A DNA stretch of 24,000 bases, from assembly GCA_963677135.2 (NCBI GenBank), contig CAXXLS010000009.1, positions 74,834-98,833 on the forward strand, written 5' to 3'. Below the pieces are notes generated by a model. The model was not told where the DNA came from, searched no databases, and saw only the letters and a list, made by a program, of their open reading frames with translations. Each line of letters starts with the position of its first letter. The first letter of the stretch is position 1. The position numbers and the translations under genes are program-made. Below are positions 1,025-20,444 of this stretch, piece after piece. The DNA comes from Geopsychrobacteraceae bacterium (GTDB lineage: Bacteria > Desulfobacterota > Desulfuromonadia > Desulfuromonadales > Geopsychrobacteraceae).

Positions 1025-2416
1025 CTATGGTGCTTCGATCCTTTTTCCGACCCGCCCCAGGGAACAACCGATACCGATCACGCACAGGCCACAGAAAACC
1101 AGCAGGGCGAAATGCATGCTCTTTAAAAATGCCGGCTGGGTTTCTGCCGTCACCTCCTGCCCATGCATCAGGAAGGAGAAGACCAGGGTGATGATCATCA
1201 TGCTCGACACCATGCCGAGAGTCCGCATGCTGGCATTGAGCCCTGAGGCAACGCCCAGGTAGCGCGGCTCGACGCTCCCCATGATCATACTGGTGTTGGG
1301 CGAAGAGAACAGGGCAAACCCCAACCCCATGAAAACCAGCAATACCAGCACCTGGGCAAACGAGGATGAAGCCGACAGGAATGCGGCCACACTAAGCCCG
1401 CAGGCACACAAAGCCATACCGGTCGTCGCCACCAGGGACGCGGGAATCCGATCGGACAGGCGGCCGCAAAGAGGGGAAAAGATGGTTTGGACGATAGGCT
1501 GGACGATCAGCACGGTGCCGGCCTGCTGAGGGCCCAACCCTTTGACATACTGCAGGTAGAGACTCATGAAAAAGGTCACCCCGAAGGTCGCCGCATAGTT
1601 GAACAGCGCGGCCAGGTTGCTGAGGGCAAAAACCCGGTTTTCACTGAGCAGCCTGATATTGAGCAGCGGATAGGGGGTGCGGCGCTCCTGACGCAGAAAC
1701 AGGACAAAACCGATATTGGCGATGACGACCAGGCCCCAGGCCCACCAGCCGTGCCCCAGGGTAGCCACCCCGGAGACCAGCAGCATGACCGAAAATCCGT
1801 AGACCAGAGCGCCGCGCAGGTCAAAAGGTTCTCCTGAGGCTGGGGCCCACTCTCCCCTGATCTTGAAAGAGGTCACCAGCCAGGTTGACAAGCCCAGGGG
1901 GATAAGCAGATAGAACAGTGAGCGCCAGCCGAACCAGGCAACCAGGTAACCGCCGAAAAAGGGGCCGCAGGAGATCCCGGCGTAGACGCTGGCGACCGCG
2001 ATCCCCAGAGCTTTGCCGCGATCTTTGAGAGGAAAAACCGTGACCACGATCGCCATCGTGGTCGCCATCACCATTGCGCCGCCGACACCCTGAAGAAATC
2101 TCATCAAGATAACAGCTTCAACAGACCAGGCTTGCGATATGGCTGCACCGGAAAAAGTAAATATCAACAAGCCGGCCTGAAAAATCCGCCGCCGCCCATG
2201 AATGTCGCCGAAACGACCCATGGCCAGGAGAAAAATTGCGGAAGACAGGGCATAAGTGGTCTCGACCAGACCCAGCTGCATGGCGGTGGCGGAAAACTCC
2301 CGCCCCATGACCGGCAGGGCCACCCCCACCGATGACATCATGAACGGCATCAGGAAGTGGGCAATACAGACCGCAAACAGGATGGCCGTCCGTGATGACG
2401 CGTCGTCCTGGGTCAT
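1025..2416 (-). CDS. MFS transporter, DHA2/EmrB-like drug:H+ antiporter type
   Basis: The 463-aa protein is hydrophobic throughout. The MGRFGDIHGRRRIF loop matches the MFS motif A position, and the length fits 14-TMS DHA2 proteins. Its ATG overlaps the upstream S1 gene stop (ATGA at 2413-2416). Confidence 0.88.
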   Translation of the reverse strand: MTQDDASSRTAILFAVCIAHFLMPFMMSSVGVALPVMGREFSATAMQLGLVETTYALSSAIFLLAMGRFGDIHGRRRIFQAGLLIFTFSGAAISQAWSVEAVILMRFLQGVGGAMVMATTMAIVVTVFPLKDRGKALGIAVASVYAGISCGPFFGGYLVAWFGWRSLFYLLIPLGLSTWLVTSFKIRGEWAPASGEPFDLRGALVYGFSVMLLVSGVATLGHGWWAWGLVVIANIGFVLFLRQERRTPYPLLNIRLLSENRVFALSNLAALFNYAATFGVTFFMSLYLQYVKGLGPQQAGTVLIVQPIVQTIFSPLCGRLSDRIPASLVATTGMALCACGLSVAAFLSASSSFAQVLVLLVFMGLGFALFSSPNTSMIMGSVEPRYLGVASGLNASMRTLGMVSSMMIITLVFSFLMHGQEVTAETQPAFLKSMHFALLVFCGLCVIGIGCSLGRVGKRIEAP

Positions 2417-3618
2417 TTGCGCTTGTTCCGCTCTTTTTTCTGCTGGCTGGCCTTGAGCAGATCGCCCAGGGTCCCCATCCCTGAAGAAACAGGTTTGTCG
2501 GAATAACTGGTCTCCATCACCTCTTCGTCCGCATTGCCGGCCAGGGCCAGACTGATACGGCGTTCCGCCAGGTCGACCTTTTCAATCACGACATTGAGGC
2601 TCTGTCCCACCGTCAGCACATCCTGGGGATGGCGGACGCGCTGCCCCCCTTCCCCCAGTTTGGAGATATGCAGCAGACCGTCGACGCCATCCTCCAGGGT
2701 GACAAAGGCGCCGAACTGAGCCAGGCGGCTGACTTTGCCCGAATACTGGCCACCCGCCTTGTAGATGGTTCCGACCTTGCTCCAGGGATCGGCCAGGGTA
2801 TCGCGCAGGCTGAAGGAGAACTTGTTGTTCTCCCAATCGATCTTTTTAATGGCGACCTCGATCTGCTGGCCAACGTGGAGCACGTCATTGACATCTTCGA
2901 TACGGCCGTAGCTGATCTCGGAAATGGGCAACAGCCCTTCAATGCCGCCGATATCCACGAAGGCCCCGAAATTGAGGATATTGGTGACTTCCCCCGTGAC
3001 GACCATGCCCTCTTTGAGACTCTTGCGCAGACTTTCGCGCTGCTGCTGGCGTTCCTCGTCAAGCAGCTGGCGGTGGGACACGACGATATTGCGACCGCGT
3101 TCACTGAACTGGGTAATCTTGAATGACAGGCTGGTCCCGATCAGGTCGGCCGGTTCCCCCTGGCGGATGCCGGTCTGGGAGAAAGGGCAGAACGCCCTGA
3201 TATTTCCGGCCAGCTTGACTTCAAAGCCTCCCTTGATCTCTTTTTCAATGCGCCCCTCGACAGGGATGCCGCTCTGATAGGCATTCTCCAACTGTTCGGT
3301 TCCGGAACCGCTGCCGCCGACCTTGGTCGTAAAACGCAGCTCGCCGCCACTGCGAGACAGGAAAAAGACCGCAATTCTGTCACCAGCCTGGAACTGGGGC
3401 TCGCCCTCGGCATTCAGCAGTTCGGCTGTTGCCAGCACCCCTTCACCTTTCTGACCGACATCGAGAAAGCTCCAGTCCTTGCCGATCTGCAGCAAGGTCC
3501 CTTCGATCTTCTGCCCCGGTTCGAGCTGCTGTCCGACCCCCGACAGGCTGGCTTCGAACATGGCTGCAAAATCTTCTTCCTCTGCGCTGAACTCGTCGTC
3601 TCTGAAATCGTCACTCAT
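2413..3618 (-). CDS. S1 RNA-binding domain protein (four S1 domains, acidic N-terminus, basic C-terminal tail)
   Basis: Four S1-like segments are visible, for example GMVVTGEVTNILNFGAFVDIGGIEGLLPISEIS and GGQYSGKVSRLAQFGAFVTLEDGVDGLLHISKLG. I placed the start at the ATG at 3618 (MSDDFRDDEF), which follows GAGGA. The track start at 3681 has no RBS. Confidence 0.85.
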   Translation of the reverse strand: MSDDFRDDEFSAEEEDFAAMFEASLSGVGQQLEPGQKIEGTLLQIGKDWSFLDVGQKGEGVLATAELLNAEGEPQFQAGDRIAVFFLSRSGGELRFTTKVGGSGSGTEQLENAYQSGIPVEGRIEKEIKGGFEVKLAGNIRAFCPFSQTGIRQGEPADLIGTSLSFKITQFSERGRNIVVSHRQLLDEERQQQRESLRKSLKEGMVVTGEVTNILNFGAFVDIGGIEGLLPISEISYGRIEDVNDVLHVGQQIEVAIKKIDWENNKFSFSLRDTLADPWSKVGTIYKAGGQYSGKVSRLAQFGAFVTLEDGVDGLLHISKLGEGGQRVRHPQDVLTVGQSLNVVIEKVDLAERRISLALAGNADEEVMETSYSDKPVSSGMGTLGDLLKASQQKKERNKRK

Positions 3619-3975
3619 GACCCAATCCTCTTTGTTGACTGGTTTTCCTTCTGAAAACCTGGCCGCAGACACCCGGAACATCCGAAGCTCCGCAACCGGA
3701 TAAAAAGGGAAAGATTAGCCCTTTTCAGAGAGAGAGTAAATGGAGAGATTGGTATTTTATCTGAAAAATGCCGCTGGCATTTTGATAAATGAAAAAATAG
3801 ACATTCAAGCCGGGCAGCGGCTTTGCGGTTCTGCCCGTTGATGCGTCAGCATCCGGGCGGGCTCTCATGTGCTGGCGACAGCAATAAATCGCAGACGGAC
3901 TCAGTTGTCGTCAGTGTGTTTGACCTTCAAGGGCATTTTTGCTTCCTTTTGTTGCCCAGGACAAAAGGAAGCCGG

Positions 3976-4001
3976 CTGCCGGGCCGGGACCCGGCGGTTT
4001 T
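3976..4001 (+). terminator. terminator-like GC hairpin plus T4 (T1 of unit 1; equivalents at about 4439-4463 and 4894-4919, degenerate at 5354-5380)
   Basis: CTGCCGGG-ccggga-CCCGGCGG forms an 8-bp stem with one G-U pair, followed by TTTT. It is present in units 1-3. Confidence 0.45.
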
Positions 4002-4065
4002 GATGGTGCTTTAATGTTTTAACAGAAACAGTCAAAGACAAGGTCGCGGGGTCGCGCCCCCGCCC

Positions 4066-4123
4066 GGCGCCTTACTATTTGTCCCAGGCGGGCGACAAAT
4101 AGTAAGCACAAAACGCCCTTTTT
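4066..4123 (+). terminator. long hairpin plus T5 (T2 of unit 1; equivalents in units 2 and 3)
   Basis: CTTACTATTTGTC (4071-4083) pairs perfectly with GACAAATAGTAAG (4094-4106). GGCG/CGCC extends the stem across a bulge. TTTTT follows at 4119-4123. Confidence 0.45.
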
Positions 4124-4223
4124 ACATGTCCGGATGACGATCAGCAATTCCCAGTAGGGAGACATTCAGGCTGGCAACGACCCGGCCCACGCTGAGCAGG
4201 CTCAGCTAAAGGCCAGAACCACA

Positions 4224-4242
4224 AAAACACCAAAGGTGTTTT
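4224..4242. terminator. A-tract/hairpin/T-tract element at the unit 3' end (T3; equivalents at 3765-3783, 4685-4703, 5141-5159)
   Basis: The sequence is AAAACACC-aaa-GGTGTTTT here and AAAATGCC-gnt-GGCATTTT in the other copies. It is symmetric, so it could terminate transcription in either direction. The minus strand reads T5 after the stem. Confidence 0.5.
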
Positions 4243-4266
4243 GACCGTTGAAAAGACCCTCACCTC

Positions 4267-4723
4267 CAAGCCGCAAAGCGGCTTTACGGTTCTGCCCGTT
4301 TATGCGTCAGCATCCGGGCGGGTTGTCATGTGCTGGCGACAGCAATAAATCGCAGACGGACTCAGTTGTCGTCAGTGTGTTTGACCTTGATAAGATCTTT
4401 TTGGTTCGTTTTTCCATCGTTGGGAAAAATGAACCCGGCTGCCGGGCCGGGACCGGCGGTTTTGATCTTGCTTTAAGGTTTAAACAGATACAATCAAAGG
4501 CTAGACCGCGGGGTCGCGCCCCCGCCCGGCGCCTTACTATTTGTCCCAGGCGGGCGACAAATAGTAAGCACAAAGCGCCCTTTTTACATGTCCGGATGAC
4601 GATCAGCAATTCCCTGTTGGAGACATTCAAGCCAACAACGACCCGGCCCACGCTGAGCAGGCTCAGCTAAAGGCCAGAAACGCAAAAATGCCGTTGGCAT
4701 TTTGATAAATGATCTGTGATCTT
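4267..4723. repeat. array unit 2 (type B)
   Basis: It carries the B-type hairpin GGTTCGTTTTTCC/GGAAAAATGAACC at 4403-4435, in place of the A hairpin. The flanking sequence is conserved with units 1 and 3. Confidence 0.9.
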
Positions 4724-5183
4724 CAAGCCGCAAAGCGGCTTTGCGGTTCTGCCCGTTGATGCGTCAGCATCCGGGCGGGTTGTCATGTGCTGGCGACAGC
4801 AATAAATCGCAGACGGACTCAATTGTCGTCAGTGTGTTTGACCTTCAAGGGCATTTTTGCTTCCTTTTGTTGCCCAGGACAAAAGGAAGCCGGCTGCCGG
4901 GCCGGGACCCGGCGGTTTTGATGGTGCTTTAAGGTTTTAACAGAAACAGTCAAAGACAAGGTCGCGGGGTCGCGCCCCCGCCCGGCGCCTTACTATTTGT
5001 CCCAGGCGAGCGACAAATAGTCAGCACAAAGCGCCCTTTTTACATGTCCGGATGACGATCAGCAATTCCCAGTTGGAGACATTCAGGCTGGCAACGACCC
5101 GGCCCACGCTGAGCTGGCTCAGCGAAAGGCCAGAACCACAAAAATGCGGTTGGCATTTTGACAGAGGCAACATATTCAATTTC
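4724..5183. repeat. array unit 3 (type A)
   Basis: The A-type hairpin is at 4859-4890. The unit differs from unit 1 by a few substitutions, for example in the 13-bp stem at about 4990-5025 (AGTAAG to AGTCAG). Confidence 0.9.
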
Positions 5184-5423
5184 CAAGCCGCGCAGCGGCT
5201 TTGCGGTTCTGCCCGTTGATGCGTCAGCATCCGGGCGGGTTGTCATGTGCTGGCGACTGCAATAAATCGCAGACGGACTCAATTGTCGTCAGTGTGTTTG
5301 ACCTTGATAAGATCTTTTTGGTTCGTTTTTCCATCGTTGGGAAAAATGAACCCGGCTGCCGGGCCGGGACCCGGCGACCTTGATCTTGCTTTGCAGGTTT
5401 TTAACAAAAACAGTCAAAGACAG
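5184..5423. repeat. array unit 4 (type B, truncated after about 240 bp)
   Basis: The B-type hairpin is at 5320-5352. Homology to the other units ends after GTCAAAGACA at about 5423. Confidence 0.85.
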
Positions 5424-5529
5424 AACCACCGGAGCGACACCCGCAAGACACAAGCCTGTTTGCCTTTTTGAAATTCAATGGTATTTTCTAATTCTCAAAA
5501 AACATTATAACCCGTGAGGACATGTCACC

Positions 5530-6228
5530 ATGAAACCGACCAGCTGGCTGGAAAGTCTGAATTGTGCAATTGAGGGGATCCTCTGGGCGGCCCGCGGCGA
5601 GCGCCATGTCCGCTATCACCTGTCTGCCGCCCTGGCCGTGGTCTTTCTGGCCCTCTTCTTCAAGGTCTCGGCCATGGAGTTTTTTCTGCTGGTGCTGGCC
5701 GCCGTCATCGTCATCTTTGCCGAGCTGATGAACACCGCCATCGAGGCGGTCGTCGACCTGGTCACCGACGAATATCACGAGCTGGCGAAACGCGCCAAAG
5801 ATGTCGCTGCCGGAGCCGTCCTGGTGACCAGCATCGGAGCCATCGTCCTCGGTTACCTGGTCCTGTCAGGGCATATCTTCACTCTCTTCGACAGCCAACC
5901 GACCCTGATCCAGGAGCCCCGCGGCACGGTCCCCGTCGGCGCGCTGCTGATGGTCATTATCCTGGTTGTGCTGTTCAAGTCACGCTTCAACCACGGCACC
6001 CCGTTGCACGGCGGCATGCCCAGCGGCCATGCGGCCATCGCGTTTTCCATCGCCACCTCGACTCTGTTGCTGGGCGACAACCTGGTCATCGGCCTGCTGG
6101 TTCTGCTCCTGGCCCTGCTGGTCAGCCAGAGCCGCCTGCTGATGAAGATTCACACGCCGCGGGAAGTCTTCCTCGGGGCCCTGCTCGGCACCGCAGTGAC
6201 CCTTTTTACCCATCTGCTATTCAGCTAG
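5530..6228 (+). CDS. diacylglycerol/undecaprenol kinase (DgkA) fused to a PAP2 lipid phosphatase domain
   Basis: The N-terminal half has the DgkA signature ELMNTAIEAVVDLVTDEYHELAKRAKDVAAGAVL. The C-terminal half has PAP2 motifs PSGH and SRLLMKIHTPREV (SRx5Hx3E/D). GAGGA lies about 10 nt upstream of the ATG. Confidence 0.85.
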   Translation: MKPTSWLESLNCAIEGILWAARGERHVRYHLSAALAVVFLALFFKVSAMEFFLLVLAAVIVIFAELMNTAIEAVVDLVTDEYHELAKRAKDVAAGAVLVTSIGAIVLGYLVLSGHIFTLFDSQPTLIQEPRGTVPVGALLMVIILVVLFKSRFNHGTPLHGGMPSGHAAIAFSIATSTLLLGDNLVIGLLVLLLALLVSQSRLLMKIHTPREVFLGALLGTAVTLFTHLLFS

Positions 6229-9947: not shown

Positions 9948-10559
9948 ATGGATATGATCTGGCCATATTTTCAGGGAATCGGCATCGGCGGCGGCCTTAT
10001 CATAGCCATCGGTGCCCAGAACGCTTTTGTTCTGGCCCAGGGAATCCGCCGCAATCATCCCGTTCAGACCGCTGCGGTCTGCAGCCTCTGTGATGCGATC
10101 CTGATTTTCGCCGGAGTCAGCGGGGTCGGCGCCCTGCTCGCCACCAACAGCCTGCTGCAACAGGGAGCCACCTGGTTGGGCACTTTGTTCCTGTTCTGGT
10201 ACGGGATACGTTCCCTGCGCTCGGCACTGTCCGGAGGCGACCTGGTTCCCATGGAGACCGGGCGGATGACCCGTTCGAAACTGCTCGCCACCACCCTGGC
10301 CCTGACCCTGCTCAACCCCCATGTCTATATCGATACCATCATCCTGCTCGGCAGCCTGGCCGGCCGTCTGCAGCCCCAGGAGCGTTACCTGTTCGCCGCG
10401 GGCGCCATCACCTCCTCCTTCCTCTGGTTTTTCGGTCTCAGCCTGGGAGCCGGATTTCTTGCTCCCCTGTTCCGCCGGCCCATCGCCTGGCGCTGCCTCG
10501 ACAGCCTGGTTTGTCTGACCATGTGGAGCATCGCCCTGTCTCTGATCTGGTCGGATTGA
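9948..10559 (+). CDS. argO: LysE/ArgO family amino-acid (arginine) exporter
   Basis: YFQGIGIGGGLIIAIGAQNAFVLAQGIRRNH parallels the E. coli ArgO N-terminus ([31 protein letters not shown]). The 203-aa length and hydrophobicity fit. Confidence 0.85.
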   Translation: MDMIWPYFQGIGIGGGLIIAIGAQNAFVLAQGIRRNHPVQTAAVCSLCDAILIFAGVSGVGALLATNSLLQQGATWLGTLFLFWYGIRSLRSALSGGDLVPMETGRMTRSKLLATTLALTLLNPHVYIDTIILLGSLAGRLQPQERYLFAAGAITSSFLWFFGLSLGAGFLAPLFRRPIAWRCLDSLVCLTMWSIALSLIWSD

Positions 10560-10802
10560 AGGTCACCTCAGGGGCCGCCCATCGATAAAAAGCCGAATAA
10601 TTTTTATTCCAGGATTTAATCCGGGATCAAATCTGCCCATGCGTGAAAAGCAACCAGCGGCGTCTTTACCGATGCCGGAACCGTATGATCTTTAATCCAA
10701 GAGTGAAGAAAAATGTTAAAATAACAAGGCAGGGTGCCATTAGTCCTCAGAAGCAATGCTTTGCCGCAATCCGATATCTGGGCAACGGGAGAGGAGGTCA
10801 TC

Positions 10803-10973
10803 ATGAAAGACAGTGTTGTGCGACTCAAAAATCTCTGTGAAATCCTGATCAATATGGGAGTGACCAATACCCCCAACGAAAACCAGATAAAAAAAATGAT
10901 TTTAGAACTTGAAACAACAATCCTTAAGGAAATGGAATTATTGAAGGACAGAGAGTCGATGTCTGACTTTTAA
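10803..10973 (+). CDS. hypothetical small protein (56 aa, predicted helical)
   Basis: The ATG at 10803 follows a strong RBS, GGAGAGGAGG. It lies in an AT-rich intergenic block, and I recognise no family. A competing antisense ORF sits at 10616..10876. Confidence 0.35.
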   Translation: MKDSVVRLKNLCEILINMGVTNTPNENQIKKMILELETTILKEMELLKDRESMSDF

Positions 10974-11061
10974 TCGTTCAAATCATTTTAAGTGGATAGA
11001 ATAGCAAGAATTAGGTGGTCATCACATCAAACGCCCTCCCGAACAGGATACGGAGGCCACT

Positions 11062-12894
11062 ATGACCCATCTCCCCCCGCTTCCCAAGGATCCCCATACC
11101 CTGTTTGTGTTGGGGCTGGCTACCCTTGCGCTCTTCCTGTTCTCTCGTAAAAAACTTCCCCTGGAAACCGCCAGTCTGATCATTTTGGTCATCTTGGCCT
11201 GCGTATTCGAGTTGTTCCCATACGCAAAACCGGGCCAGGTTATCAGGGCTACAGACTTTTTCCATGGCTTCGGTCATGAAGCTCTGATCGCTGTGTGTGC
11301 GTTGATGGTCGCCGGGCAGGGTATTGTCAGAACGGGCGGACTGGAGCCCATTGGCCGAGCGCTTTCACAGCTCTGGAAAATCAGCCCCAGTCTTTCCATG
11401 ATTACGACCCTGTTCATTGCTGCCGGAATCAGTGCCTTTATCAATAATGTTCCCGTCGTTATTCTGCTTTTACCCATTTTGATCAGTGTTTCGGTGAAAA
11501 CAGGAAGCAAGGCGTCAGGCATGTTGATGCCTATGGGCTTCGCCACGATTATCGGAGGAACCAGCACGACCATTGGAACTTCGACCAACCTCCTGGTTGT
11601 TTCCGTGGCCGCCGATATGGGCCTTCGAAAAATGGAGATGTTTGATTTCTTTGTGCCGGCGGCAACGGCCGGCATTCTCGGTTTACTATACCTGTGGTTT
11701 GTCGTTCCACGCATCATGCCTGAGCGGGGAATTGACCTCAGTGATACCTCGCCCCGCATTTTCACTGCCCATCTCGCCCTTCTTGAAAAAAGTCCCATGA
11801 TTGGTAAAACCCTCGCTGAAGCGCAGGAAAAAGTCGGAGAAACCATCAGGGTGACAAATATCAGGAGGAATAACGACACGTTAGCCATGCCATTGCCAAG
11901 CCTCATCCTCCATGCGGGGGATCAATTGATCCTGCGTGATACGCCTGAAAAGCTGAAGGAAATTGAAAAAATTTTTGAAGGAACCCTGTATCAATCCCAT
12001 GCAGGTGAAACGCATTCCGACGACAGTAACCTCTTTGAGGCAAAGGATCAGCAAATTGCCGAAATTGCCGTCATCCAAGGTTCCTACCTGCAAGGTCGGA
12101 CGTTAAGCGGGCTGCGCTTTGCAGACCGTTTCGGCCTTATCATCCTGGCTATCCACAGGGCGGGAAAGCCCTTGAGTAAAAACAGCGAGGCCATTGGAGA
12201 TATAAGACTTGCATCTGGAGACATTCTTCTGGTTCAGGGTCCCCGCGACCAGATCGCAAAACTTAAACAGATTAAAGATTTTCTCGTTTTGGATGCGACT
12301 ATCGACCTGCCCTACACCAAAAGAGCCCCCCTGGCCATGATGATCATGATTGCCATCATCACCCTGACAGCTGCCGATATTCTGCCTATCGCAATCAGTG
12401 CCAGCGCCGGTGCGTTAATCATGATCATGACCGGATGTCTGAATTGGCGAGATGCGACAAGAGCCCTGAGCGTCCAGGTCATTTTTCTTGTCGTTGCAAG
12501 CCTGGCCTTGGGGCACGCCTTACTGGAAACAGGTGGTGCAGACTATCTTGCGGAACTGATGCTGCTATTTTCAGGACATGCTTCACCGCCCGTCATGCTC
12601 AGTGGAACCATGCTGGTCATGGCCGTACTGACAAATCTTGTTTCCAATAATGCCACGGCGGTTATCGGTACCCCCATCGCGGTATCCGTCGCAACCCAGA
12701 TGGGGCAACCGGCCGAGCCATTTGTCCTGGCGGTCCTGTTTGGAGCAAATCTGAGCTTTGCGACACCAATGGCCTACAAAACCAATTTACTTGTCATGAA
12801 TGCCGGTCGTTACACCTTCAATGATTTCCTGCGTATCGGAATTCCCCTGGTGCTTATTGCTCCGGTGATTAAACAGTTAAATCAAGCAGCATAA
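11062..12894 (+). CDS. SLC13/DASS-family anion permease with two central TrkA-C (RCK C-terminal) domains; native 3' end replaced by IS sequence
   Basis: The termini are hydrophobic, with two TrkA-C-like segments between them (IRVTNIRRNNDTLAMPLPSLILHAGDQLILRD and LIILAIHRAGKPLSKNSEAIGDIRLASGDILLVQG). ACGGAGG RBS. The last 12 codons (from 12857) are read from the IS630 terminal repeat. Confidence 0.85.
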   Translation: MTHLPPLPKDPHTLFVLGLATLALFLFSRKKLPLETASLIILVILACVFELFPYAKPGQVIRATDFFHGFGHEALIAVCALMVAGQGIVRTGGLEPIGRALSQLWKISPSLSMITTLFIAAGISAFINNVPVVILLLPILISVSVKTGSKASGMLMPMGFATIIGGTSTTIGTSTNLLVVSVAADMGLRKMEMFDFFVPAATAGILGLLYLWFVVPRIMPERGIDLSDTSPRIFTAHLALLEKSPMIGKTLAEAQEKVGETIRVTNIRRNNDTLAMPLPSLILHAGDQLILRDTPEKLKEIEKIFEGTLYQSHAGETHSDDSNLFEAKDQQIAEIAVIQGSYLQGRTLSGLRFADRFGLIILAIHRAGKPLSKNSEAIGDIRLASGDILLVQGPRDQIAKLKQIKDFLVLDATIDLPYTKRAPLAMMIMIAIITLTAADILPIAISASAGALIMIMTGCLNWRDATRALSVQVIFLVVASLALGHALLETGGADYLAELMLLFSGHASPPVMLSGTMLVMAVLTNLVSNNATAVIGTPIAVSVATQMGQPAEPFVLAVLFGANLSFATPMAYKTNLLVMNAGRYTFNDFLRIGIPLVLIAPVIKQLNQAA

Positions 12895-13969
12895 GCGATC
12901 TTTGGATGCTTGAAGTAATTTTGCACATGCCTCGGACGATTCTGTAGGGTGCACATGAAGGAACGGGTCTTTTTCTCCAAGTCCTTCTGTGTTCGAGCAG
13001 GTAGTCCGGAGCGGATCTTCTGCTTGAGGTCGCCGTTAAGATATTCGTCCGGGTTGAGTTCCGGGGAATATGACGGCAGATAAAAGACCTCGATTTGCTC
13101 TTTGTTTTCTTCCAGCCAGGCCTTTACGACCTTGCTGTGATGGACCCGCAGGTTGTCGAGAATCAGAAACACCTTGCGGTCCGCGTCCTTGATCAAACGG
13201 GACATAAATTTGATCAGCACTTTGGCGGTCATGGTTTCACGATACAGCATGAACCGCACTTTGCCACGGTTCGTAACCGAAGAGATCATATTGACCCGGC
13301 TCTTGGTGGCATTGATTCGCACCACAGGGGTTTTGCCCTTTGGAGCAAATCCCCGGGCATGATACGCATCATTTTGGATGCCGGTCTCGTCGCCCCAGTG
13401 TATTTCGGCCTTTTCCTGCTTGGCTCGGGCCTGAATCTTCGGGTACTCCGAATCAAGCCACTGGGCGACGTGCTTGGAACTCTGTTCGTAGGCACGCTTT
13501 GTTGGCCTTTGCGGGGTGAAACCCCAGCGTTTCAGGTAGTCCGTGATCGTTCGCAGCGGCAGGTCTTGACCATAGAGGTGTTTGATCACCAGGCGAATCG
13601 CGTCACGGGTCCAAAGCGCAAAAGACAGCTTGAACTGATCCGGGGTCTTGTCCACCAGTAGCTTCTGGATTTCGGCTTCCTGATCGCTGGTCAATTCTCG
13701 CTTGTCGCCATGACGGCGACCGCGCTGACCCGGCTTGATGGCATCAAGGCCGCCACGTTCGTACTTTTTCCAGATTGTACTGACGTGGGGTTGACTGAGA
13801 CCAACGATTTCGGAAATGGCCGTGTTGTTCAGACCTTTTTCACGTAAACGAACGACTTGTTTACGTAGTTCGTATTGCGCTTGTTGATTGAGTTTTCGGG
13901 CATCGAAGTTATTCATGCCCTACAATAACACGAATTAAAGTAGATTTAAATATTTATCCGCCGAGTCAA
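12857..13969 (-). mobile_element. IS630-family insertion sequence (1113 bp) with TA target-site duplication
   Basis: The terminal inverted repeats match at 19 of 27 positions by my count: TTGCTCCGGTGATTAAACAGTTAAATC (12857-12883) against the reverse complement of 13943-13969, TTGACTCGGCGGATAAATATTTAAATC. TA lies at 12855-12856 and at 13970-13971. There is one intact transposase ORF. Confidence 0.85.
12882..13916 (-). CDS. IS630-family (Tc1/mariner-like) DDE transposase
   Basis: The 344-aa protein has an N-terminal HTH (LNNTAISEIVGLSQPHVSTIWKKY). DDE-type motifs are present: HWGDETGI, FLILDNLRVHHS and YLPSYSPELNPDEYLN. No internal stops. Confidence 0.92.
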   Translation of the reverse strand: MNNFDARKLNQQAQYELRKQVVRLREKGLNNTAISEIVGLSQPHVSTIWKKYERGGLDAIKPGQRGRRHGDKRELTSDQEAEIQKLLVDKTPDQFKLSFALWTRDAIRLVIKHLYGQDLPLRTITDYLKRWGFTPQRPTKRAYEQSSKHVAQWLDSEYPKIQARAKQEKAEIHWGDETGIQNDAYHARGFAPKGKTPVVRINATKSRVNMISSVTNRGKVRFMLYRETMTAKVLIKFMSRLIKDADRKVFLILDNLRVHHSKVVKAWLEENKEQIEVFYLPSYSPELNPDEYLNGDLKQKIRSGLPARTQKDLEKKTRSFMCTLQNRPRHVQNYFKHPKIAYAA

Positions 13970-20284: not shown

Positions 20285-20444
20285 ATAGCTATCAGTAAAA
20301 TAACCTGACTTCTCAGCCAGACGTGCTGAGCAATATATATGTATTCCGGGTTTTTAAATCAGCAGGCAGCTGAAAATCATTCGCGCTGTAATGACGACCT
20401 TGATGACCTTGATGACCTTGTCAATACTCTGTTGCATGCAGCTG

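Follow-up and report, generated by a model that had tools for sequence, protein, structure and literature searches.

A tandem array of hairpin-dense ~458-bp cassettes upstream of dgkA in a Geopsychrobacteraceae bacterium is a candidate structured-RNA locus

In heterocystous cyanobacteria, the small RNA (sRNA) NsiR1 is encoded by 12 gene copies in tandem, every one of which has a promoter of its own (PMC4030482), and type I toxin-antitoxin (TA) loci combine tandem intergenic duplication and variability between strains with structured units (PMC2887945). Here we describe a tandem array of hairpin-dense cassettes of ~458 bp in a 24,000-nucleotide stretch of DNA from a Geopsychrobacteraceae bacterium (assembly GCA_963677135.2, contig CAXXLS010000009.1, positions 74,834 to 98,833; hereafter the window). 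The array occupies positions 3764..5422 of the window on the + strand, immediately upstream of a dgkA-type gene, and had been flagged from the letters alone as a structured-RNA or regulatory array of unknown class, which we refer to as the original prediction. We consider the feature to be genuine and unusual, and to be a reasonable, narrowly distributed new candidate for a structured-RNA locus rather than a demonstrated new class. Our tentative reading, to which we give somewhat less than an even chance, is that small structured RNA genes, each capped by a terminator and read from the + strand, were recently amplified here into a tandem array.

By analogy, the array would work most like tandem sRNA gene arrays such as that of NsiR1, although it is not a member of that group. 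As in the NsiR1 array, non-coding repeats lie head to tail in one intergenic region (3.6 copies, with no conserved open reading frame (ORF)), a terminator-like hairpin ends each copy, and conserved bodies are separated by variable spacers. In contrast to the 60-nt NsiR1, the units described here are ~460 bp long and composite, with 2-3 terminators each; no promoter was recognised in the individual units, related genomes do not conserve the array, and it has no sequence or Rfam relationship to the cyanobacterial locus. Resemblances to type I TA loci (the ldr-rdl long direct repeats, ibs-sib and zorO-orzO) include heavily structured units of a few hundred bp, their repetition in tandem at one intergenic site, which in relatives is short, and patchwise differences between neighbouring copies, but the small hydrophobic toxin ORF that defines those loci is absent. 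Extragenic repeats of a different kind, namely BIME and REP in enterobacteria, NIME in Neisseria and BOX in pneumococci, are built from 20-150-bp modules, of which tens to hundreds of copies lie dispersed. The array shares with them a modular, hairpin-forming extragenic organization, separable modules and a presence that varies by lineage; unlike them, it repeats every 458 bp, and the ~120 kb examined yielded no additional copy. Its dense and thermodynamically exceptional structure also recalls the structured RNAs of Rfam 15 (riboswitches, 6S, tmRNA, RNase P, OLE, GOLLD, ROOL, HEARO, raiA and ribozymes), but here it comes as an array that matches none of these families.

Tandem Repeats Finder (TRF) detected one strong array, which spans 3764-5422 with a period of 456 bp, 3.6 copies and 85% matches (score 2422). 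The anchor CAAGCCG marks unit starts at 3806, 4267, 4724 and 5184, with periods of 461, 457 and 460 bp, and reproduces the four head-to-tail units of the original prediction. The last unit had been thought to be truncated at about 5423; instead, a four-way alignment of the units (alignment A1) followed degenerate last-unit sequence beyond 5422 to ~5478. Units of the same type are spaced 918 bp (A-A) and 917 bp (B-B) apart. The A-B-A-B alternation that had been described is real, but it is limited to one patch, alignment columns 169-215, and does not extend over the units as wholes. Internal duplication of half-units was unsupported. Neither the remaining 22 kb of the window nor the ~97 kb of retrieved loci, of which ~58 kb came from relatives (loci L001, L002, L004 and L010-L012), contained another copy.

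On the + strand each cassette runs in the order T3 and a spacer, H1, two-tier H2, H3, a small hairpin (GTCAG-N5-TTGAC), an AU-rich linker and H4, followed by T1 with a run of four Ts, a spacer, H6, the two-tier H7/T2 with a run of five Ts, H8, H9 and the next T3. The junction hairpin T3 has the form A5-TGCC-loop-GGCA-T4 (3764..3783, with others at 4684-4703 and 5140-5159); its 3' arm is TGGCATTTT, and from its sequence it looks like a bidirectional terminator. A variant copy at 4223-4242, with ACACC/GGTGT arms, differs at 7 of 20 positions and folds equally well. H1 (AAGCCGC-loop-GCGGCTT, 3807..3823, copies at 4268, 4725 and 5185) varies only in its loop and closing pair. It is followed by H2 (GCCCG..GATGC-GTCA-GCATC..CGGGC, 3833..3858, copies at 4294, 4751 and 5211) and by H3 (3872..3914, copies at 4333, 4790 and 5250). 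The stem of H3 is 11 bp long, includes two G.U pairs and closes a 21-nt loop; H3 also overlaps the small hairpin. H4 exists in two types, each with a predicted 13-bp stem: type A at 3941..3972 and 4859-4890, and type B, whose stem contains one G.U pair, at 4403-4435 and 5320-5352. T1, a GC-rich hairpin followed by four Ts, lies directly after it (3972..4003, copies at 4435, 4890 and 5352). The second half of the cassette carries H7/T2 (4066..4123, copies at 4528 and 4984), which consists of GGCGCC, a 13-bp perfect stem (4533-4545/4556-4568 in unit 2) and GCGCC and is missing both from the last unit and from a homologous contig, L013, described below. H9 (GGCC..GCTGAG-CAGG-CTCAGC..GGCC) lies at 4184..4214, with copies at 4645 and 5101. 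Every hairpin named in the original prediction was present and could be assigned coordinates. In every full unit T1, T2 and T3 are hairpins followed by four or five Ts, and terminator-like hairpin plus T-run sites number 16 compared with 3.7 expected.

A single unit folds to -191.6 kcal/mol on the + strand (z = -6.25 compared with shuffles) and to -184.2 kcal/mol on the - strand (z = -4.6). As modelled, the + strand is modestly favoured for the units: local folds per unit are 5-11 kcal/mol more stable on + and contain 15-17 G.U pairs there versus 11-13 on -, and type B H4 reaches -16.3 kcal/mol on + versus -11.7 on -. A G.U pair in the H2 of L013 exists on the window's + strand only, and on this strand T-runs come after T1, T2 and T3.

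The region had been described as non-coding, and this proved correct, with no ORF common to all units and no real protein relatives for the long frames. The frame that opens MTISNSQ stops immediately after these residues in unit 1, encodes 24 aa in unit 2 and reads through to 55 aa in unit 3, and a 114-aa minus-strand frame is restricted to unit 2, as reported. A hydrophobicity scan combined with ORF tables identified no conserved frame with a hydrophobic segment across the units, and a small toxin or peptide was rejected for lack of any such ORF. Candidate frames have no ribosome-binding sites and are interrupted by stops or a 1-nt indel. A protein search with the 140-aa + strand frame found no relatives, and none of the ten longest array ORFs (0/10) occurs in a collection of 15 billion proteins, even though flanking proteins of the same genome are present in it. 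Exact look-ups of window proteins and of these ten ORFs likewise returned no record.

Comparison of the copies revealed a scaffold and a set of divergent patches. The H1-H3 scaffold is 94-97.5% identical in all unit pairs with no A/B signal, and the second half of the cassette is 94-96% identical between copies. The H4 patch is 100% identical within a type and 53% identical between types, and all 22 variable sites in columns 169-215 group unit 1 with unit 3 and unit 2 with unit 4. The stretch after T1 is 98% identical between the two A units compared with 72-78% in the other pairs, and the junction spacers are 46-73% identical. H4-A and H4-B differ at 16 of 32 core positions, yet both are predicted to form 13-bp stems (-18.2 and -16.3 kcal/mol, respectively). 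RNAalifold and pair counting on MAFFT alignments were blurred here, with the A and B stems one column out of register, and a mutation-simulation test of the hairpins was run in their place. None of 5000 random 16-substitution mutants of H4-A folded as well as H4-B. For the T3 variant at 4223-4242, which keeps its fold despite its 7/20 changes, the same was seen in 0.6% of random mutants. Retention of hairpins through many changes, as the original prediction had it, is borne out by these two tests.

Rfam 15 gave no match at gathering score across the whole window and none at E<=1 either in 3600-5600 or in L013. This was the check that had been proposed for the statement that the unit belongs to no known RNA class, and the statement stands. 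A single viral-element Rfam match in the locus L011 lay far below threshold and was disregarded. No tRNA or tmRNA was found, two units searched by blastn had no match among plasmid and phage records, and papers on Geobacter and Pelobacter 'multicopy sequences' contained nothing matching this element. A phmmer search of the 114-aa minus-strand frame against 1.84 billion representative proteins returned one match, P0245 (60 aa, E 5e-5), which is itself a spurious ORF on JGI contig Ga0451648_056218 (L013). Translating spurious ORFs and searching protein databases with them thus uncovered a homologue that had escaped exact-word DNA scans.

An nhmmer profile built from the window units only matched L013:1088-1299 (E 7.8e-28, profile positions 69-274), a span that runs from H2 to ~45 nt beyond T1 and so corresponds to the cassette's first half. 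Compared with type B H4 plus T1, L013 is 92% identical over 93 nt; T1 is 100% identical, and H4 differs at one loop base. In the middle of this half, identity to L013 is ~40-55%; the small hairpin GTCAG-N5-TTGAC is kept, and H2 shows one compensatory pair (A-U to C-G) and one change from G-C to G.U. The L013 module is a single copy, convergent with a UDG-family gene; TTAGTTTTTTT comes after its T1, and a T7 run lies 4 nt beyond this hairpin. The contig derives from a different organism, with a GC content at third codon positions of 58% compared with 72-82% for the window genes. The second half of the cassette was absent from L013. Because only the first half was found there, the ~460-bp unit is composite, with a first half that is an element in itself. 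The original prediction had treated the ~460-nt unit as one unknown class; it needs revising, given this composite make-up, a first half that alone is related to sequence elsewhere, and three close relatives of the host that lack the element.

The array is flanked on the left by a gene for a short, four-domain ribosomal protein S1 type protein (2413..3618, - strand; Pfam and NCBIfam) and on the right by a DgkA-PAP2 fusion gene (5530..6228, + strand; Pfam). The two genes point away from each other with the array between them, and an MFS transporter gene follows the S1-type gene. Flanking proteins place the organism in the Desulfuromonadales, with Pelobacter seleniigenes (82%) as the nearest named relative. 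Three relatives with 86-94% identical flanking proteins keep the S1-type/dgkA gene pair, separated by 131 bp (L001), 259 bp (L002) and ~310 bp (L011). Local alignments of the L011 spacer with the unit scored 28-33, compared with a shuffle maximum of 31. Since the intergenic regions of the three relatives are short and non-homologous, the array is specific to this lineage.

The ends of the array carry parts of a promoter. Read from the sequences, the three relatives have in common a dgkA promoter composed of TTGTTT, 16 nt and TGnTATCTT, and the left flank of the array to ~3772 aligns with its -35 and spacer part (alignment A2). Within this flank lies the left bounding direct repeat TGGTATTTT (3750..3758, + strand), which is homologous to the same part of the relatives' promoter. 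On the right, a promoter scan and alignment A2 identified TTGCCT, 16 nt and a second TGGTATTTT as an extended -10 (5460..5487, + strand); this is likely the working dgkA promoter. The related motif TGGYATTTT occurs five times in 24 kb, compared with 0.53 expected, always on the + strand and only at the array ends (3750 and 5479) and within three of the four junction hairpins, on their 3' arm (3775, 4695 and 5151). The 9-nt direct repeat would also be a feature of a miniature inverted-repeat transposable element or insertion sequence (IS), yet it matches the native promoter as well, and no convincing terminal inverted repeats were seen when the array ends were read.

Under the reading of the array as tandem RNA genes, each cassette would comprise two parts. 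Module 1, of ~220-270 nt, would consist of H1, two-tier H2, H3, the small hairpin, the AU-rich linker, H4 and T1 with its U-tract; an AU-rich linker, a hairpin and a U-tailed terminator in this arrangement resemble the 3' end of many bacterial sRNAs. The second stretch would contain H6, the strong terminator T2 and H8-H9 and end at the junction hairpin T3. A first element may have inserted into the extended -10 promoter of dgkA, and unequal recombination between the promoter-derived TGGYATTTT repeats may then have multiplied it, with a complete promoter copy remaining beside dgkA; this course of promoter entry and multiplication is suggested by short T-rich similarities. T3 could end the transcript of one cassette while giving the next a weak promoter relic, TGGCATTTT. 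The units would be transcribed, probably from the + strand, and their RNAs may act, for instance as regulators that base-pair or bind proteins and whose dose increases with copy number, with H4 types A and B as alternative specificity or stability elements. We regard a wider version of this idea as rather unlikely, namely that module 1 founds an undescribed family of ~220-270-nt structured regulatory RNAs in Desulfuromonadales-like bacteria, that the A and B types set the specificity for protein or RNA partners, and that capture of the dgkA promoter created a high-dose array of mixed specificity.

Several results weigh against tandem RNA genes. Consensus, pattern and relaxed scans identified no sigma-70-like or sigma-54-like promoter conserved in the units. 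The sole per-unit candidate is the extended -10-like TGGCATTTT at three of the four junctions, and this relic has a C at -12 and is absent from the remaining junction. The strand assignment is blurred by T1 and T3, which are terminator-like on both strands, and the T1 of L013 could, from its position, be the terminator of the convergent UDG gene. H3 is not kept in L013. In one genome per GTDB species, in JGI metagenomes and in IMG/VR, exact 20-30-mers matched by chance only: a 20-mer scan found one match of just 22 nt in the GTDB species genomes and five in the JGI metagenomes, none related beyond 20-22 nt, and IMG/VR gave no match. The syntenic site in L001, L002 and L011 has no unit homology by blastn or nhmmer. 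The original prediction also took stem-preserving changes as pointing to selection on structure, and this went too far. Only H4 and T3 carry the claim, and apart from such differences the paralogues share 94-97% identity; where other stems have substitutions, these lack compensating changes, and covariation assessed by pair counting on five sequences was not significant (55/500 shuffles reached the observed score). Palindrome-templated mutation could also restore hairpins without selection on RNA.

Some of these same results would be expected if the array were a mosaic intergenic repeat, functionless or selfish and built of terminator-like and REP-like palindromes in the manner of BIME and NIME mosaics or a minisatellite, which we judge to be somewhat unlikely. 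A patchwork of this kind would have landed in the dgkA promoter, been multiplied by slippage or unequal crossing-over and been homogenised by gene conversion, and its hairpins would persist through correction of palindromes at the DNA level and through movement of palindromic modules between loci. Restriction of the array to one lineage, with no counterpart in the three relatives, and its mosaic variation, in which entire patches are swapped, fit this explanation, as do the short direct repeats at its flanks, the failure to find a promoter in the units and the uncompensated stem changes beyond H4 and T3. The sharing of half a cassette with L013 likewise suggests independently moving modules. 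On the other hand, the lack of further copies in the remainder of the window and the ~97 kb of fetched loci makes a high-copy dispersed repeat unlikely. Homology to L013 reaches ~170 nt upstream of the terminator, further than a terminator or REP element needs, and the G.U-containing stems and + strand energy bias suit RNA better than DNA palindromes.

Two further explanations dispense with a trans-acting RNA, and we consider both improbable, and to the same degree. The first is that the perfect or near-perfect palindromes are DNA-level sites, either crossover or binding sites for a site-specific recombinase or another dimeric DNA-binding protein. The palindromes can be read as 12-8-12 (H4-A), 13-7-13 (H4-B) and 13-10-13 (H7), a geometry that would resemble lox/FRT-type core sites, and the identical direct-repeat sites 917-918 bp apart would permit excision or amplification of an A+B circle. 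Two discrete 'specificities' alternate along the array, each 100% identical within its type, and the B arms in L013 are identical to those in the array while the central spacer alone differs. Nevertheless, the 24-kb window contains no recombinase, integrase or partner gene, its sole mobile gene being an IS630-type transposase 7.5 kb away; the GC hairpins are followed by T-runs in the manner of terminators, and G.T positions break the DNA symmetry.

The second is that the array is a cis-acting insulator or attenuator for dgkA, in which ~10 terminator-like hairpins block or tune read-through. Its location directly upstream of dgkA on the same strand, the full promoter copy kept after it and the enrichment of terminator-like sites are all consistent with such a role. 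However, relatives manage with 131-310 bp and no such stack, the S1 gene is transcribed away from the array and so leaves no obvious upstream transcription to block, and the L013 module is not upstream of a co-oriented gene.

An assembly artefact, either a mis-assembled repeat or a small circular element joined in as tandem copies, is more improbable still. The source appears to be a metagenome-assembled contig, given that the flanking proteins were found once, on a contig of 406 kb, but the copies are non-identical, with private substitutions in each and distinct junction spacers; synteny with relatives holds on both sides, and another sample independently contains part of the unit. A tandem type I TA or other small-protein locus like ldr-rdl, ibs-sib or zorO-orzO, in spite of the intergenic tandem duplication, presence or absence between relatives and structured units of similar size that it would share with such loci (traits as in PMC2887945), is effectively refuted: no ORF of <70 aa with a hydrophobic segment is conserved across the units, the frames are broken by stops and frameshifts and lack ribosome-binding sites, and the best + strand frame no longer has its start codon in L013.

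Other known types of element were also tried and rejected. A CRISPR array does not fit, as the entire 458-bp period repeats and no cas domains occur among the window genes; nor does an integron cassette array, as no integrase is encoded in the window and the units are homologous over their full length. A retron, diversity-generating retroelement (DGR) or other non-coding RNA linked to a reverse transcriptase was rejected on the absence of a reverse-transcriptase domain from the window, and adenine mutagenesis of the DGR type on the nature of the A/B differences, which are not adenine-specific and involve all four bases. A CsrA/RsmA sponge was dismissed because ~6 GGA motifs per 460 nt equal the random expectation.

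If the units are transcribed, they would represent an unclassified structured RNA in the Desulfuromonadales, metal- and sulfur-reducing bacteria that are environmentally important and poorly studied, and a natural example of a non-coding gene that captured its neighbour's promoter, amplified and kept two hairpin 'alleles'. If they are not, the array would be a new kind of long-period mosaic intergenic repeat, and it would illustrate that hairpin-preserving differences among a few paralogues do not prove RNA function.

A number of observations were made on the neighbouring sequence. The mechanical ORF of the S1-type gene starts at 3681; an ATG at 3618, preceded by AGAGGA, gives a protein of 401 aa with 100% identity to database entry P0001, so 3618 is likely the true start. 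Upstream of the S1-type gene, four genomes share a conserved element, GGGAAAGATTAGCCCTTTT...GAGTAAATG, located at 3706-3745 in the window, 9930-9965 in L001, 9850-9885 in L002 and 60-95 in L011. Read on the minus strand as TTTACT-17-TAATCT, it is probably the S1 promoter. In L011, the closest relative, positions 95-330 hold ~240 nt of hairpin-containing spacer sequence of its own, for example TGCCGGCA followed by T4A5, and CTGTCGCC-CGCAT-GGCGACAG. This insert is unrelated to the array, and the dgkA-S1 intergenic site thus seems to collect different structured inserts in each lineage. L004 is a JGI contig that carries an S1 relative with 90% identity. Only 135 nt precede the gene before the contig ends (positions 1-50) in a 12-nt perfect inverted repeat, TTTCAAAAAATG ... 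CATTTTTTGAAA, a repeat at which the assembly may have broken; this upstream sequence differs from both the window and L011.

Directly downstream of dgkA, L001 (4776-9000) and L002 (4702-8916) carry a three-gene sensor kinase/response regulator cluster that is not in the window, where ADP-ribosylglycohydrolase and DUF4015 genes follow dgkA instead. The IS630-family transposase gene of the window (DDE_3 plus HTH; 12882-13916, - strand) shows no similarity to the units. A short tandem repeat, TGATGACCT x 3.2, lies at 20392-20420 between the genes for a transketolase N-terminal subunit and DctM. Finally, positions 10500-11060, upstream of a CitMHS/TrkA-C transporter gene, have a low GC content (0.43) compared with 0.5-0.64 elsewhere in the window.

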